Source of the DNA: an uncultured delta proteobacterium
Lineage (GTDB): Bacteria > Myxococcota > Myxococcia > Myxococcales > Myxococcaceae
Assembly (NCBI GenBank): GCA_963771175.1
Contig: CAVYSY010000026.1
Location: 352,001-416,000, forward strand
Reading direction: 5' to 3'
DNA: 64,000 nucleotides
The number at the start of each line of letters is the position of its first letter. Position 1 is the first letter of the stretch. Shown piece by piece: positions 27,501-30,500 of the stretch. The position numbers were made by a program.

Positions 27501-30500
27501 CTGCCCCACACCTCCATCGGAGGTGGAGATGCCGTCGTAGTCGGACCAGCGGCAGCCCGCCTGGAGCAGACCGGTCGCCAGCAGGAGCAGTCCCCATCTC
27601 ACGTTGCGAGCCATGTGTCGCACCCTCCTTGGACGCGCATGGCGCCGAATCTACCAAGCCGGGCCCTCCCGGGTGCGCCGCCTGGCTGCTCGCTCTCCGA
27701 AACCGTCCGAAAAACTCCGGGAAAATGCCGCGTCAGGATTCCGGGAACCCAGCGTCCATTACCCGTGAAAGGAGCGGTGACGATGCGGACGATGACGAAG
27801 CAGAGCACGATGAATCCGAAGCAGCACAGCAACGCCGGTTTCAAGCCCGTGCGCTTCAGCATCCGCCCGGTCCCCGCCTCCTCGTATCCGCTGTATCCCG
27901 TCGACGGGCGCGATTCCCGCGGCTCCTTCGACCCGCCACACCCTGGCCTCTTCTGATGCTCCGCCTCCCGAAGTGAGGCGGCGGCGAAAGAGGCCGGGTT
28001 CCCGAAAGGGGCCCGGCCTCTCGCTTTTCCAGCCTCACTCCTCCGGGGACGTAGAGCGTTACGCGAAGACGCACCGGCCTGTAGAGCCGGAGCCTTCAAT
28101 GGCCCGCTGGGTTCAACTCCCAGCGTCCCCACTCCGCAGTGGAAGTACGGGTTCTCTGACAACTGAATCGCAGTGGTGAAGCGCCGCCTGCCCTCAAGCG
28201 AGGCGGCACACGCCTCCGTAGCTCACGGGTAGAGCATCCGCCTCTTAAGCGGACGGTGAGGGTTCGAGTCCCTCCGGAGGTACTCATACGCGGATGTCGT
28301 CCAGCGGCAGGACACCGGCCTCCCAAGTCGGAAACACGGGTTCGAATCCCGTCACCCGCTCCACCTATTCCGGGATCGTCCAGCGGCAGGACGGCGGGCT
28401 CTGACCCCGCAGACGCAGGTTCGAATCCTGCTCCCGGAGCTGTCGCAGCACAGGCAACACATTCCACGGTAGCTCAATGGCAGAGCAGGCGGCTGTTAAC
28501 CGCAAGATTGGGGGTTCGAGTCCCTCCCGTGGAGCAACTCGGGGTGTAGCTCAGTCTGGACGAGAGCGCGTGCTTGGGGTGCACGAGGTCGTCGGTTCGA
28601 ATCCGGCCACCCCGACTCCGTTTCAACCGTTTCATCTGGGTGTGGCTCAACTTGGTAGAGCGCGCGGTTCGGATCCGCGAGGTTGCAGGTTCAAATCCTG
28701 TCACCCAGACATTTCGCCTCCGTAGCTCAGGGGAACAGAGCGCACGGCTCCGGACCGTGAGGCCGCAGGTTCGAATCCTGCCGGGGGCACAGCTTCGATG
28801 CGGAGTGGGACCGGACGTCCCACCGGGTCTCATACGCCTGGGTCGCAGGGTTCGACTCCCTGCTCCGCAACTTCTTCATCATGCCGTCCTGGCGTAGGTG
28901 GTCCGCGCGCCCGTCTGAAGAGCGGGAGGACCGGGTTCGATTCCTGGGGACGGCACTCGTTTTGCTCCTGTAGCTCAGCTGGTAGCAGCACCGGTTTCGT
29001 AAACCGGGGGTCGTCGGTTCGAACCCGACCGGGAGCACTGTTTCACGCAGCATGTTGGCTGAAGGCAAAGGGTGAGCCACCGGTCGTGAATCCGGTTCCA
29101 GAGGGTTCGAGTCCCTCCAGCCGACCTTCTTCGCACGCCGAGCCAGCTGGAGACGGCGTTGGTCCCACACACCAATTTCGCCGGGTTCGATCCCCGGGGC
29201 GTGCACTGCAACAGACTCCCCAACGCGTCCGCGTGGCCCAATCGGGAGAGGCGGCTGGCTCAAACCCAGCTCACGTGCGAGTTCGACTCTCGCCGCGGAC
29301 ATACCCCCCAAGAAGGACAACCGAGTCATGGAGACACTGGTCCTCAACCAGTCCTATGAGCCCGTGGCCCGGATCTCCTGGCAGCGAGCGGTGATGCTGC
29401 TGTGGCAGGGGAAGGTCGAGGTGGTCGAGGAGTACGACGACCGCCTCGTCCGCTCCGTCACCGTCGAGATCCGGATGCCCTCCGTCATCCGCTTCCTGCG
29501 CGGCGCGCGTCGGGGCGGGCGCGGCGTGAAGTTCAGCCGCGACAACGTCTACATGCGCGATGGCTGCCGGTGCCAGTACTGCGGCCGGAAGGTGTCGCGC
29601 CCCGAGGCCACGTACGACCACGTCGTGCCCCGGGCCCAGGGCGGCCGTACCACCTGGGAGAACATCGTGATCGCCTGCGTGCCCTGCAACCAGAAGAAGG
29701 GTGGGCGCACGCCGGTGCAGGCGGGGATGGCGCTGCTCTCCGCTCCCGTGAAGCCTCGCAAGCTCACGGGTTCGGTGCAGCTCACCTTCGCCCACGAGAA
29801 GGGCATGCCCGTCTCGTGGAAGAAGTTCCTCCGTGACGTCGCGTACTGGCACACGGAGCTGGAGGAGTGAGCGGCGGGTGAAGGGGAACCACCAGAGGTG
29901 GTTCCCCGGCTCTGCTCCGTGACAGGAGCAGTGCTGACAGGGAAGGCCAGAGGCGTTCCCGACACCCGTACGCCCCGCACGCCGGCAGGCGGGCCCTGCT
30001 GCCGGCATATTTGGAAGGTCGACGCCGGAGGCCCGGCGGCCCGCCTCGAAAGCGGTGCGGGCGCATGACGCGCTCGGGGTTCGAGTCCCTTGCCTTCTGT
30101 TCCGTCTCTTCTGGAAGTGTGAACTGGCGATGGCGCCAGGCCCCGTTGCTAGCGGGTGCGGACCGGCTTCCGGTCTGGGGTTCGAGTCCTCCGCCTTCCG
30201 TTCCTCTGCCCTCTTTCCGACGGTGTCGTGTGACCGCCGGACGGGTGAGCCCCCCGCCCCAGGAGCCTAGTGTCCCGCGCGCCCGGCATCCCCGCCGGGA
30301 AGGGGAAGACACAGATGCGCGACTTCAAATTGGGACGCTGGGCGGTGTTCGGCCTCGTGCTCGCTGCTCCCGTGCTGGGTCTGGGCTGCGGCAATGACGA
30401 CGACGAATCGGAGCAGGAGAAGATCGAAAGGGGTCTTTCCCTCTCCCCCGTGCCCCTCAACCTGGACGGGAAGGACCGCGACCTCGTGGGCCTGGGCAGC

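Follow-up and report, generated by a model that had tools for sequence, protein, structure and literature searches.

The window analysed here, 64,000 nucleotides of a myxobacterium of the genus Archangium (contig CAVYSY010000026.1, positions 352,001 to 416,000), contains on its forward strand a dense array of tRNA genes preceded by a short reading frame and a terminator-like hairpin, and an HNH endonuclease gene encoding 180 amino acids is embedded in the array (29328-29870, +; Pfam PF01844/PF14279, phrog_16726). Further downstream is a gene for a ClpB-like AAA+ protein with a C-terminal PCRF (release-factor) domain, identified with Pfam and NCBIfam models (31348-34181, +) and split by a frameshift in the window assembly. 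The initial annotation had listed 13 tRNA genes between 28045 and 29301 (+), and ARAGORN at its default settings reproduced their order and coordinates exactly: tRNA-Tyr(GTA), which has a long variable arm (28045-28132), tRNA-Lys(CTT) (28212-28283), tRNA-Gly(CCC) (28290-28363), tRNA-Gln(CTG) (28369-28440), tRNA-Asn(GTT) (28463-28535), tRNA-Pro(GGG) (28540-28616), tRNA-Pro(CGG) (28636-28710), tRNA-Arg(CCG) (28716-28790), a tRNA with a CAT anticodon (28799-28871), tRNA-Phe(GAA) (28883-28956), tRNA-Thr(CGT) (28964-29038), tRNA-Val(CAC) (29133-29206), and tRNA-Leu(CAA) (29227-29301), which has a short variable loop (class I shape), A73 and a Leu-type D arm. The number 13 holds for the default scan; with the laxer -ps90 setting, Rfam and comparison with relatives, where orthologues of all the additions are present, the fuller count is 16. 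The added genes are a His-like tRNA (G-1, C73, anticodon GTG; 29055-29126, +) and, both located 3' of the HNH gene, tRNA-Ser(CGA) (30013-30099, +) and tRNA-Ser(GCT) (30114-30200, +). The array thus packs 16 genes into 2.16 kb, or 7.4 per kb, and only tRNA-Gly(CCC) encodes its CCA end.

The Gly, Gln, Thr, Arg and both Pro genes were recovered by ARAGORN, Rfam and alignment over the genus, and the Asn and Phe genes by ARAGORN and Rfam, with four and three compensatory pairs, respectively. Rfam tRNA scores of ten of the 13 genes lie between 50.1 and 68.1 bits, the highest being tRNA-Lys, and the other three fall outside this range: tRNA-Tyr, with 16 genus copies and one compensatory pair, scores 23.5 bits, below the gathering score of 29, and neither tRNA-Val, with two compensatory pairs, nor the CAT-anticodon (Met) gene has an Rfam tRNA match at E<=1. 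The latter has an unusually compact core, with one base between the acceptor and D stems, a 5-bp D stem with a 5-nt loop and a 6-bp anticodon stem, and its alignment over 14 genus genomes has only eight variable columns. The His-like gene (Rfam 31.5 bits) has an anticodon loop one base shorter than its genus copies, and it is probably either defective or the victim of an assembly error, the latter because the window assembly is frameshifted in conserved genes (those for LeuRS and the AAA protein). A contig from an RNA library of a close relative omits exactly this gene (joint 29048>29126). Alignments over the genus genomes reveal compensatory pairs in 15 of 18 gene families. Each array anticodon is also carried by a dispersed gene, as had been stated, at an identity of 0.57-0.78 (a single Asp value of 0.09 is an alignment artefact).

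This kind of locus is already described, HNH gene included, in PMC8421152 and PMC5966550, and ours is a reduced L-array: its tRNAs are divergent duplicates of housekeeping anticodons, and the linked HNH protein is homologous to all8564, the protein beside the trn operon of Anabaena PCC 7120 (39% identity over 143 amino acids, E 8e-31). A strict tRNA array unit is defined in PMC4758250 as at least 20 tRNA genes at no fewer than two per kb; the window array has the density, but its 16 genes fall below 20, and since fuller orthologues have up to 28 genes we call it a reduced descendant. Those fuller arrays, covering 19-20 amino acids, are found in Hyalangium, Myxococcus, Pyxidicoccus, Corallococcus and metagenome-assembled genomes. 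Like the Anabaena operon, the window array is a dense, same-strand set of supernumerary, divergent tRNAs mostly without encoded CCA, and like it would be expected to serve as a conditional back-up set. The Anabaena operon has 26 genes rather than 16 and lies on plasmid delta, whereas the window array sits in the chromosome, at a site that is fixed, and has been passed down across genera; the Anabaena HNH gene is upstream of its array, whereas ours is embedded between Leu and Ser genes; and the Anabaena operon is controlled by the repressor TrcR (PMC10272220), whereas the window array has a leader frame and a terminator in front. The array units of Mycobacterium genomes, plasmids and phages also combine redundant isoacceptors with an HNH gene, which is their commonest coding gene (PMC5966550, PMC6582537, PMC4758250); an RF-1 domain gene lies near them, a PCRF-domain gene near ours, and in a Mycolicibacterium plasmid array short Leu genes flank the homologous HNH gene.

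A conserved leader region precedes the array. First comes a promoter-like block (GGAAAATGCCGCGTCAGGATT ... GCGTCCATTACC; 27720-27763, +) that is kept in 16 genus genomes and takes the form TGTCAGG..CCGCGTCA in other genera; a sigma-70 consensus scan called no promoter at this position. A Shine-Dalgarno site (GAAAGGAG; 27767-27774, +) is invariant in all aligned leaders, and the core GAAAGGAGCGGTGAC occurs three times in the 9.8-Mb genome, each time upstream of a tRNA array. The reading frame that follows has 57 codons and a TGA stop (MRTMTKQSTMNPKQ...HPGLF; 27783-27956, +), and it is open from a conserved ATG to a conserved TGA in all 16 genus genomes, at lengths of 43-62 codons. The same layout is present at 12 loci in other genera. 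The final codons and stop (CCCTGGCCTCTTCTGA; 27941-27956, +), our proposed antiterminator arm, are complementary to the 5' arm of the terminator. Between the two lies Hairpin 1 (CCGCCTC / GAGGCGG; 27961-27981, +). The terminator-like hairpin, GAGGCCGGG...CCCGGCCTC and then TCGCTTTTCC (27990-28030, +), is GC-rich with a T-rich tail, and in each of the 26 leaders that have the motif it is the structure of lowest energy when the full leader is folded; the fold of 27900-28044 has z = -3.68. A simple terminator scan did not list it, and the hairpin is absent from two of the 16 genus leaders.

The leaders are paralogous, two per genome, and to judge from their codons each is written in those of its own downstream tRNAs. 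Of the 57 codons of leader A, that of the window array (array A), the tRNAs of array A read 36, the first 17 in succession among them, and those of array B read 8; the coverage of leader A is 0.86-0.96 against an expected 0.69-0.74, a match that discriminates weakly because array A covers 13-15 amino acids. Leaders B1 and B2 have 18/49 and 22/49 codons read by the five B tRNAs, including the nine-codon run LDLLLGLEL, and in 13 of 13 other genus genomes a B-type leader retains both its frame and this run. No matching leader adjustment was seen for further gene losses from the arrays. In the minimum-energy fold of the nascent RNA, CCCTGGCCTCTTCTGA pairs with nine of the nine bases of GAGGCCGGG. 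Pairing between the leader end and the terminator 5' arm occurs in nascent-RNA folds of 19 of 26 A-type and 12 of 13 B-type leaders, and in 792/2600 and 223/1300 of the corresponding shuffles; pooled, this is 31/39 against 1015/3900, although kin among the leaders are not independent and the leader counts therefore overstate the support.

What might a reading frame and a terminator be doing in front of a set of tRNA genes? In the attenuators of the trp, his, leu and ilv operons, a short frame carrying a series of control codons is translated, and it is followed by RNA segments that can pair in alternative ways and by an intrinsic terminator. A short frame with a ribosome-binding site, matching control codons and a terminator before the genes are all predicted here, and we read the arrangement as a predicted leader-peptide attenuator. 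The classical attenuators control biosynthetic enzymes, whereas the one proposed here would control tRNAs, its control codons being those read by the regulated tRNAs themselves, and unlike the classical attenuators its antiterminator would use the last codons and stop of the leader. Our favoured interpretation, to which we give a probability of roughly 0.6, is that the array is a chromosomal spare-tRNA operon, descended from an L-array, that is switched by a leader sensing slow decoding. Archangium and related genera of myxobacteria would have received the reduced L-array by vertical descent, as one operon made up of the promoter-like block, the 57-codon leader, the terminator, 14 tRNA genes, the HNH gene and the two Ser genes. 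By default, a ribosome reaching the TGA would mask the final leader codons and transcription would end at the terminator, before tRNA-Tyr. Early stalling of the ribosome, at codons belonging to the array's own tRNAs, would expose those final codons, which could then pair with the 5' arm of the terminator and let RNA polymerase enter the array. The tRNAs would be excised from the precursor, receive CCA and be charged by host synthetases, the short-loop Leu included, and the HNH protein would be co-transcribed after tRNA-Leu. If this is correct, the array is a back-up decoding set, produced only on a failure to decode the codons that it reads. New here are the Shine-Dalgarno site, the TGA-ended frame and the terminator preceding such arrays, and the match of leaders to the codons of their own arrays; a literature search for a leader-peptide attenuator before tRNA arrays found no paper, and the portions of the mycobacterial array papers that we used (PMC5966550, PMC6582537, PMC4758250) mention neither a leader nor an attenuator.

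The array could instead be a constitutive gene-dosage supplement for the G- and C-ending codons of a GC-rich genome, with the upstream frame and hairpin representing an unrelated small gene and that gene's own terminator, an explanation that we consider unlikely but the most serious of the alternatives. All 15 intact anticodons of the window array begin with G or C, and by a rough estimate about 0.72 of the codons in long frames are within reach of the three array loci combined. Composition by itself, with a C-rich leader end facing a G-rich terminator arm, produces pairing between the two in 17-30% of shuffles, and the pairing is missing from the minimum-energy fold of 7 of the 26 A-type leaders, four of which are from Myxococcus, Pyxidicoccus or Corallococcus and have energies no better than those of shuffles. 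In addition, an RNA-library contig from a close relative (seven differences) covers 27783-28606, running straight across the terminator from the leader into six tRNA genes, and a second covers 29244-30033, from Leu through the HNH gene and onward; such contigs may derive from DNA, and transcript starts and levels are not readable from them. Both contigs also count in favour of the spare-tRNA operon. A dosage supplement does not explain, however, why a terminator whose sequence is conserved across genera should lie 14 nt before the first tRNA, or why the leader peptide drifts and takes in-frame indels, yet start, stop and frame are constant in 16 of 16 genomes. Nor does it explain why the leader was duplicated along with the split-off B array and its distal half recast in Leu, Asp, Gly and Glu codons. 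The homologous Anabaena operon, moreover, is silent in normal growth and induced by translation inhibitors, as reported in the section of PMC8421152 consulted.

How old is the array, and is it still of use? It had been described as present in the same order throughout the genus, and it does occupy one chromosomal site in the same order in 16 of the 17 other genus genomes, but the number of genes varies within the genus from 6 to 18. The genus is also not its limit, since orthologues occur in further genera of the Myxococcota. At the shared site its neighbour in 15 of 16 genus relatives is one AAA/PCRF gene, and that gene lies directly downstream of the array or the HNH gene at 23 genome loci in several genera. 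L-arrays are described as spreading by horizontal transfer (PMC8421152); within the Myxococcaceae the fixed site and neighbour point to vertical descent. The three smaller arrays of this genome are where they had been placed (on contigs C25, C3 and C54) and recur in 13, 16 and 15 of the 17 other genus genomes, those of C3 and C54 being joined as one array in most relatives. The tRNA set is eroding, as seen from the 6-18 genes per genus genome and the probably damaged His copy in the window, and some Corallococcus loci have only Trp and the HNH gene remaining. Relatives of the array are also present in phages and plasmids, the nearest non-bacterial relatives of the HNH protein occur in Myxococcus phage Mx1 and in large viral contigs that share the Leu-HNH junction (Virus Rctr197k and IMG/VR contigs among them), and, compared by anticodon, the best viral tRNA is nearer than the housekeeping gene in 21 of 26 cases, although the viral pool is larger. 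We take the ancestry of the array to be phage-related. It is improbable, however, that the array is now a useless, decaying remnant of a phage or mobile element, owing its persistence to chance and to a selfish HNH homing endonuclease: across genera the site and the neighbour stay the same, the leader frame is upheld, the stems are upheld by compensatory changes, and the Leu(CAA), Lys and Phe genes are retained in 17 of 17 genus genomes. The HNH gene, too, is intact at 180 amino acids in all 17 genomes and 90-98% identical across 16 genus relatives, and it is retained at 62-69% identity where the array is gone. The view of the array as a maintained second tRNA set, and not a recent phage remnant, is therefore upheld.

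The HNH protein itself may act as a nuclease in homing or in maintenance, and it could belong to the IshB type. IshB proteins are IscB relatives of about 180 amino acids that combine PLMP and HNH domains (Altae-Tran 2021, as summarized in PMC11610941 and PMC10734217), and the window protein resembles them in length, in having a small N-terminal domain before the HNH core and in having no RuvC domain. Its structural model (pLDDT 81) consists of an N-terminal beta-beta-alpha-beta-beta domain and the HNH core, and its closest matches in the PDB, with a top Z of 10.6, come from HNH domains, those of IscB and small Cas9 proteins. VIA-align matches the N terminus of the model to the N termini of the IscB chains 9k30_A and 9k2z_A, both alignments starting at residue 1, with Z of 6.5 and 6.3, and to residues 6-59 of IsrB 8dmb_P with Z of 5.3 (52 aligned, rmsd 2.9). 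The NCBIfam IscB and Cas9d models match within the HNH stretch only, an HMM of the N-terminal domain found no IscB or IsrB chain by sequence, and there was no transposase among the flanking frames scanned. Neither an IS200/605 context nor an omega RNA was noticed, though no search was aimed at them. Unlike IshB, the window-type HNH gene has a tRNA-Leu gene as its constant neighbour, directly before it at 29 of 35 genome loci and at 18 of the 28 viral loci having a tRNA there; at least three tRNA genes accompany the family at 35 of its 80 genome loci, and at the same number of its 80 viral loci.

The tRNAs with Leu anticodons and a short variable loop, to which the initial annotation had drawn attention, are real: 48 distinct sequences have 98.9% of their cells paired, 18 of 20 pairs have changed on both sides, and slid controls are at most 46% paired. 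The short tRNA-Leu has 75 nt, a variable region of 5-6 nt and a standard cloverleaf, and such tRNAs are also found in cyanobacterial, mycobacterial (as PMC6582537 notes for one cluster) and phage arrays. A long variable arm is otherwise universal among bacterial tRNA-Leu (PMC7609411, PMC6614811). A precedent is the type I tRNA-Leu(CAA) of Streptomyces coelicolor, which shares the Leu anticodon, the 5-nt variable loop and a bacterial LeuRS; it is leucylated in vitro and in vivo and coexists with long-arm tRNA-Leu (PMC6614811). The Streptomyces gene is a housekeeping gene, whereas here the short form occurs only in spare arrays and phage clusters, with six anticodons.

A leucine identity is plausible for these tRNAs, and it is hardly probable that they carry no leucine, being either mischarged for deliberate mistranslation or non-translational, for example as the RNA partner of the HNH protein, even with the tight and ancient linkage of the tRNA-Leu and HNH genes, the U in place of A at the discriminator in 2 of 17 genus genomes and the aberrant acid-gel mobility of two other Anabaena operonic tRNAs (PMC8421152), since A14, A15 and U48 do not vary and A73 hardly does, the D arm has the Leu form, the window copy has neither G3:U70 nor another foreign identity mark, and all six Leu anticodons occur in one sequence family, as expected from an anticodon-blind synthetase. 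Intermediates combining a canonical Leu D arm with the short loop were also found. Charging by the host is not assured, because the Streptomyces short form, which the Streptomyces LeuRS charges, is not charged by a LeuRS of the E. coli type (PMC6614811); four of five complete genus genomes have two LeuRS genes. In Anabaena, 23 of 26 operonic tRNAs are charged in vivo (PMC8421152), so that at most three are uncharged; as that operon has four Leu genes, all of them short (75-78 nt), one or more of its short Leu tRNAs must be charged.

The two Ser genes, both 87 nt, are probably of the 8/4 type. The (8/4) tRNA-Ser and allo-tRNAs are known from phage tRNA gene clusters and from proteobacteria (PMC5389517), and our family shares with them a tetraloop on a long D stem, a long variable arm, G73 and the Ser anticodons, and probably also the 4-bp T stem and the eighth acceptor pair; as the 8/4-type genes here have Ser anticodons only, no recoding is implied. 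Over 49 sequences the Ser family is 95.5% paired, and its 6-bp D stem is 96.3% paired with six of six pairs changed on both sides. The eighth acceptor pair forms in 34 of 49, and an alternative fifth T pair in 3 of 49. tRNA-Ser(CGA) scores 39.1 bits with the tRNA-Sec model, below its cut-off of 47, and tRNA-Ser(GCT) 29.6 bits with Rfam. The former has a 6-bp D stem with a 4-nt loop, a 4-bp T stem and G73, and the window pair differs from the described (8/4) tRNAs in the acceptor stem, where the eighth position is C.U in the CGA gene and the GCT gene has a bulged base that recurs in the genus.

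What kind of object is the run of tRNA genes at 28045-29301 on the + strand? It is a reduced member of a kind already described, the long tRNA gene array (L-array) with its HNH gene. With default settings ARAGORN returns exactly the 13 genes of the initial annotation, in the order Tyr-Lys-Gly-Gln-Asn-Pro-Pro-Arg-Met-Phe-Thr-Val-Leu, and laxer settings (-ps90) add three more, all of which have orthologues in relatives: a His-like gene (29055-29126, +; Rfam tRNA 31.5 bits) and, 3' of the HNH gene, the 87-nt tRNA-Ser(CGA) (30013-30099, +) and the 87-nt tRNA-Ser(GCT) (30114-30200, +). 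The unit therefore comprises 16 tRNA genes and an embedded HNH gene (29328-29870, +). Ten of the 13 default genes score 50.1-68.1 bits with Rfam, the Tyr gene reaches 23.5 bits against a gathering score of 29, the Met and Val genes have no Rfam tRNA match at E<=1, and the two Ser genes match the Rfam tRNA-Sec model alone, with 39.1 and 29.6 bits where the cut-off is 47. Rfam rows for YrlA, SNORD125, mascRNA and Plastid-ycf2 are far under their cut-offs and sit on tRNA genes, and the dozens of overlapping calls made at -ps80 on both strands of the GC-rich flanks were discarded. Within the array CCA is encoded by Gly(CCC) only; about two dozen dispersed genes, judged by eye, end in CCA. All 15 intact array anticodons begin with G or C. 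ARAGORN makes 96 tRNA calls genome-wide, and every array anticodon is indeed, as first noted, duplicated by a dispersed gene, at an identity of 0.57-0.78, apart from one artefactual Asp alignment. The genome is 82% complete, and both of its leucyl-tRNA synthetase (LeuRS) loci and the AAA gene downstream of the array contain frameshifts, so that single-base oddities may stem from the assembly.

The initial annotation had the array present throughout the genus; this stands for 16 of the 17 other Archangium genomes, and the remaining one, 73% complete, has no match. On the fetched genus loci ARAGORN finds 6-18 genes, whose order is the same throughout but for gains and losses. Alignments over 17 genus genomes place Leu(CAA), Lys and Phe in all 17, Tyr in 16, Asn and Pro(CGG) in 15, Met in 14, Pro(GGG) in 13, Arg(CCG) and Val in 12, Gln, Thr and Ser(GCT) in 11, Gly in 10, and His in six, plus a damaged copy in the window; compensatory pairs are found in 15 of 18 aligned gene families. 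The HNH protein has 180 aa and 90-98% identity in 16 of 16 relatives, and in 15 of these the next gene is the AAA/PCRF gene. The smaller arrays of the genome are kept in 13 (C25), 16 (C3) and 15 (C54) of the 17 other genus genomes, and in eight relatives 6-8 nt separate the C3 piece from the C54 piece, which makes them one array, Glu-Asp-Gly-Leu(GAG)-Leu(CAG), hereafter array B, the window array being array A. The first reading, a maintained second tRNA set and not a recent phage remnant, is supported, and the observation behind it is confirmed and extended. Two genus genomes whose main arrays are strongly reduced have second loci matching several array tRNAs (G008:C1:3080215-3081002 and G015:C1:217677-218554).

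The link to the described kind runs through the HNH protein, which has 39% identity over 143 aa (E 8e-31) to the HNH protein adjacent to the trn operon on plasmid delta of Anabaena PCC 7120. This operon is the L-array that has been studied, and is described as silent in normal growth, induced by translation inhibitors and helpful for survival, with in vivo charging of 23 of 26 tRNAs (PMC8421152), and TrcR is reported to repress it together with its HNH gene and rtcB (PMC10272220). In mycobacterial arrays HNH genes are described as the commonest coding genes (PMC5966550). Among viruses the nearest HNH proteins are those of Virus Rctr197k (52%) and Myxococcus phage Mx1 (48%), and in both a 73-74 nt tRNA-Leu lies immediately 5' of the HNH gene. 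Where a tRNA gene is found within 150 nt upstream of the HNH gene, it is a Leu gene at 18 of 28 IMG/VR loci and at 29 of 35 genome loci, 26 of the latter being genes no longer than 80 nt. At least three tRNA genes occur at 35 of 80 genome loci and 35 of 80 IMG/VR loci; loci with none (38 of 80 and 29 of 80, respectively) show that arrays do not always accompany the HNH family. No tRNA was found near the HNH loci of an Acaryochloris plasmid and a Rhizobium phage; the tRNA-less homologue on Acaryochloris marina plasmid pREB6 adjoins a plasmid-borne methionyl-tRNA synthetase gene.

The 80 genome loci, surveyed as those encoding relatives of the window HNH protein, include loci from Archangium, Cystobacter, Hyalangium, Myxococcus, Pyxidicoccus, Corallococcus, an Anaeromyxobacteraceae MAG and other MAGs. 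Their fullest arrays reach 28 genes for 19-20 amino acids, in the order Tyr Lys Gly Gln Asn Cys Glu Pro Pro Ile (His) Asp Phe Trp Thr Gly Ala (Ala) Arg Arg Arg Met Val Leu Leu Leu [HNH] Ser (Ser) Ser, and the Archangium loci look like pieces of this fuller ancestral set. At 23 loci of several genera the array or HNH gene is followed directly by a ClpB-like AAA+ gene with a C-terminal PCRF (release-factor) domain (31348-34181, + in the window), its N-terminal stretches 86-98% and its C-terminal part about 75-91% identical to the window gene. This constant neighbour, present even at Corallococcus loci reduced to Trp and the HNH gene, fits vertical descent with erosion of the array. The window copy is split over two frames near 31665-31914, probably by an assembly indel. 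An RF-1 domain gene is described as carried by mycobacterial arrays (PMC5966550). On the upstream side a GH16 and CBM11 glycoside hydrolase gene (26228-27517, -) precedes the leader in the window and its closest relative (L031) only, so the upstream flank is variable and the downstream flank fixed.

How might such an array be switched? Spare tRNA arrays are widespread, and to our knowledge their purpose and switching are known for one cyanobacterium only. Upstream of tRNA-Tyr, 16 genus genomes have in common a promoter-like block (27720-27763 in the window), an invariant GAAAGGAG site (27767-27774), a leader reading frame (27783-27956), a first hairpin (27961-27981) and a GC-rich hairpin with a T-rich tail (27990-28030) that ends 14 nt before tRNA-Tyr. 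The frame is open from one ATG to one TGA in all 16 genomes, with indels that bring it to 43-62 codons; no Rfam family matches the region. The longer frame that contains it, orf113 (27615-27956), was rejected as a gene, having no Pfam, NCBIfam or PHROGs family and behaving as a frame in its last 57 codons only. The same layout stands before arrays at 12 loci of other genera and is absent in deeper MAG lineages. Within the genome the leader core occurs exactly three times, always before a tRNA array: in the window (leader A), on C3 (B1) and on C54 (B2). The C25 array (C25:56114-56497, Trp-Ile-Val-Ala-Ala) has a promoter-like GTCAGGAAATTCGCGCGTCCCGCGTCA motif about 50 nt upstream, and neither leader frame nor terminator.

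The codons of each leader were compared with the tRNAs of both arrays. The tRNAs of array A read 36 of the 57 codons of leader A, including the first 17 consecutively, and the five B tRNAs read eight. The B tRNAs read 18 of 49 codons in B1 (array A tRNAs, 19) and 22 of 49 in B2 (array A tRNAs, 15), nine of them consecutive (LDLLLGLEL), and a B-type leader with this run is present in 13 of 13 other genus genomes examined. At the level of amino acids the match of leader A, set against the proteome, is suggestive only, and the leader is not adjusted where arrays have decayed further. The leader frame with its terminator and the codon matching of leaders to arrays are both well supported. Within the scope of our searches, a codon-matched leader and terminator before tRNA arrays is unpublished: they gave no paper in which leader peptides or attenuators are brought together with tRNA arrays or clusters.

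Leader and terminator offer a concrete, testable mechanism. When the nascent RNA is folded up to the 5' arm of the terminator, 19 of 26 A-type leaders and 12 of 13 B-type leaders show pairing of this arm with their last eight codons and stop. Folded at full length, the RNAs of all 26 A-type leaders form the terminator, and masking a ribosome footprint at the stop abolishes the pairing of the arm with the leader end. Shuffling the 27 nt still leaves the pairing in 792 of 2600 A-type and 223 of 1300 B-type trials. Several Myxococcus and Pyxidicoccus leaders lack the pairing and have energies no better than those of shuffles, and the terminator hairpin is missing in two of 16 genus leaders. The last four codons of the leader are complementary to GAGGCCGGG in the terminator arm, a candidate antiterminator pairing whose exact form is hypothetical. 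If this reading holds, the logic of amino-acid operons would be reused for making tRNAs on demand, the gate being a leader peptide written in the codons of the array itself, so that each array would report on its own codons. An RNA-Seq run (X1) yields contigs of a close relative that bridge the leader, terminator and six tRNA genes (27783-28606, seven differences) and Leu(CAA), the HNH gene and beyond (29244-30033); such RNA-library contigs may come from DNA, and neither starts nor levels are readable from them. Cover by X1 is lacking over 26000-27637 and 31382-32317, which is no evidence of a transcript boundary, and three other runs (X2, X3 and X5) yield only short, less similar pieces.

The leucine tRNAs that lack the long variable arm are regular in such arrays and in phage tRNA clusters across phyla, and are not a Streptomyces oddity. 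Short forms make up 4 of 4 Leu genes in the Anabaena operon, 2 of 2 on a Nostoc plasmid, 2 of 3 on a Mycolicibacterium plasmid, 2 of 2 in phage Mx1 and 4 of 5 in Virus Rctr197k. An alignment of 48 distinct sequences has 98.9% of its cells paired, and both sides have changed in 18 of 20 pairs; slid alignments give at most 46%, and none of 500 shuffles reaches the observed values. Their common D arm, GTAGCCCAAyyGGnAGAGGC, is close to that of housekeeping tRNA-Leu, intermediates with a canonical Leu D arm and a short loop exist, T8, A14, A15, G18 and U48 (the base before the T stem) are invariant and A73 nearly so, and all six Leu anticodons occur within the family. These features suggest that the short forms arose from tRNA-Leu when the arm was lost, and that they kept the leucine identity set, taken here as listed in the introduction of PMC6614811. 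That paper describes a natural short-loop tRNA-Leu(CAA) charged by the Streptomyces coelicolor LeuRS and not by E. coli-type enzymes, a short-loop tRNA-Leu(TAG) in a Mycobacterium cluster is mentioned in passing elsewhere (PMC6582537), and a literature search for 'type I tRNALeu' gave nothing beyond the Streptomyces paper. The finding is relevant to LeuRS recognition and to the design of orthogonal tRNAs.

Could a second LeuRS be dedicated to these tRNAs? Two full-length bacterial-type LeuRS genes are found in four of five complete genus genomes (G004, G006, G008 and G015), and the window's genome has two copies (C40:153755-156232 and C33:6253-8685), both broken by frame changes in the assembly. 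The idea was dropped because G016 has the array with a single LeuRS gene and the LeuRS genes are unlinked to the array. A role in antibiotic self-resistance or in the charging of short-loop tRNA-Leu is conceivable for the second copy.

The array Ser genes, judged by their stems, are probably of the (8/4) tRNA-Ser form, which is described from phage tRNA clusters and proteobacteria (PMC5389517). Among 49 array Ser sequences, 34 have an eighth acceptor pair and three an alternative fifth T-stem pair, and the 6-bp D stem of the family is 96.3% paired, with all six pairs co-varying. The window acceptor stems contain a C.U mismatch (CGA gene) and a bulge (GCT gene). Short-loop Leu tRNAs and Ser tRNAs of this form each have precedents in print, and the present survey shows both to recur regularly in such arrays across phyla.

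The HNH protein carries Pfam HNH and HNH_5 and belongs to PHROGs phrog_16726, and its core is closest, in sequence and fold, to the HNH of IscB, small Cas9s, the Gme HNH nicking enzyme and McrA. A structure model from 47 sequences (pLDDT 81), which replaced a 10-sequence model that was poor outside the core (pLDDT 60), folds the N-terminal 60 residues into a beta-beta-alpha-beta-beta domain. Two IscB chains align to this model from residue 1 (VIA-align, Z 6.5 and 6.3), and IsrB aligns to it with residues 6-59 (Z 5.3, 52 residues aligned); Foldseek against the PDB gives matches in the HNH core only. The protein resembles IshB, which reviews describe as combining PLMP and HNH domains in about 180 aa (PMC11610941, PMC10734217), in its length of 180 aa, HNH core and small N-terminal domain, but differs in that a profile of the N-terminal domain finds no IscB or IsrB chain by sequence. 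The array-associated HNH family is linked to small IscB relatives. A far-reaching reading would make the Leu-HNH junction, constant from phages to myxobacteria, a functional ribonucleoprotein pair, with the HNH protein an IshB-type IscB relative, the adjacent short-loop tRNA-Leu or a tRNA-mRNA precursor its RNA partner, and the pair a tRNA-associated nuclease maintaining, spreading or guarding the array; loss of the arm would be an adaptation to this second role, and the leader-gated array, triggered when housekeeping tRNAs are depleted, a toxin-proof decoding set. Taken whole, this is a long shot, to which we would give roughly one chance in fourteen.

Some single features of these loci are described here in their own right. 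The His-like gene lies between Thr and Val, the genus His gene between Pro(CGG) and Arg, and the L031 locus has an Asp(GTC) call at the position of the window's His-like gene, which could be a case of anticodon switch or of relocation; one X1 joint skips the His-like gene. The tRNA with a CAT anticodon (28799-28871, +) has a compact core: a single base separates the acceptor stem from the D stem, which has 5 bp and a 5-nt loop, while the anticodon stem has 6 bp and the variable loop 4 nt. In this it resembles tRNA-Pyl or mitochondrial tRNA-Ser(UCN). The gene, strongly conserved among 14 genus genomes and found in most arrays of other genera, may be a Met, initiator or Ile2 tRNA. In phage Mx1 (record 56915-59619) a TROVE-domain (Ro-like) protein and a small peptidyl-tRNA hydrolase are annotated near the tRNA genes, which suggests a phage module for RNA repair or translation rescue. 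In the window, three strong hairpins, for example GGGGAACCACC..GGTGGTTCCCC, lie in the 140 nt that separate the HNH stop from the first Ser gene (29871-30012, +).
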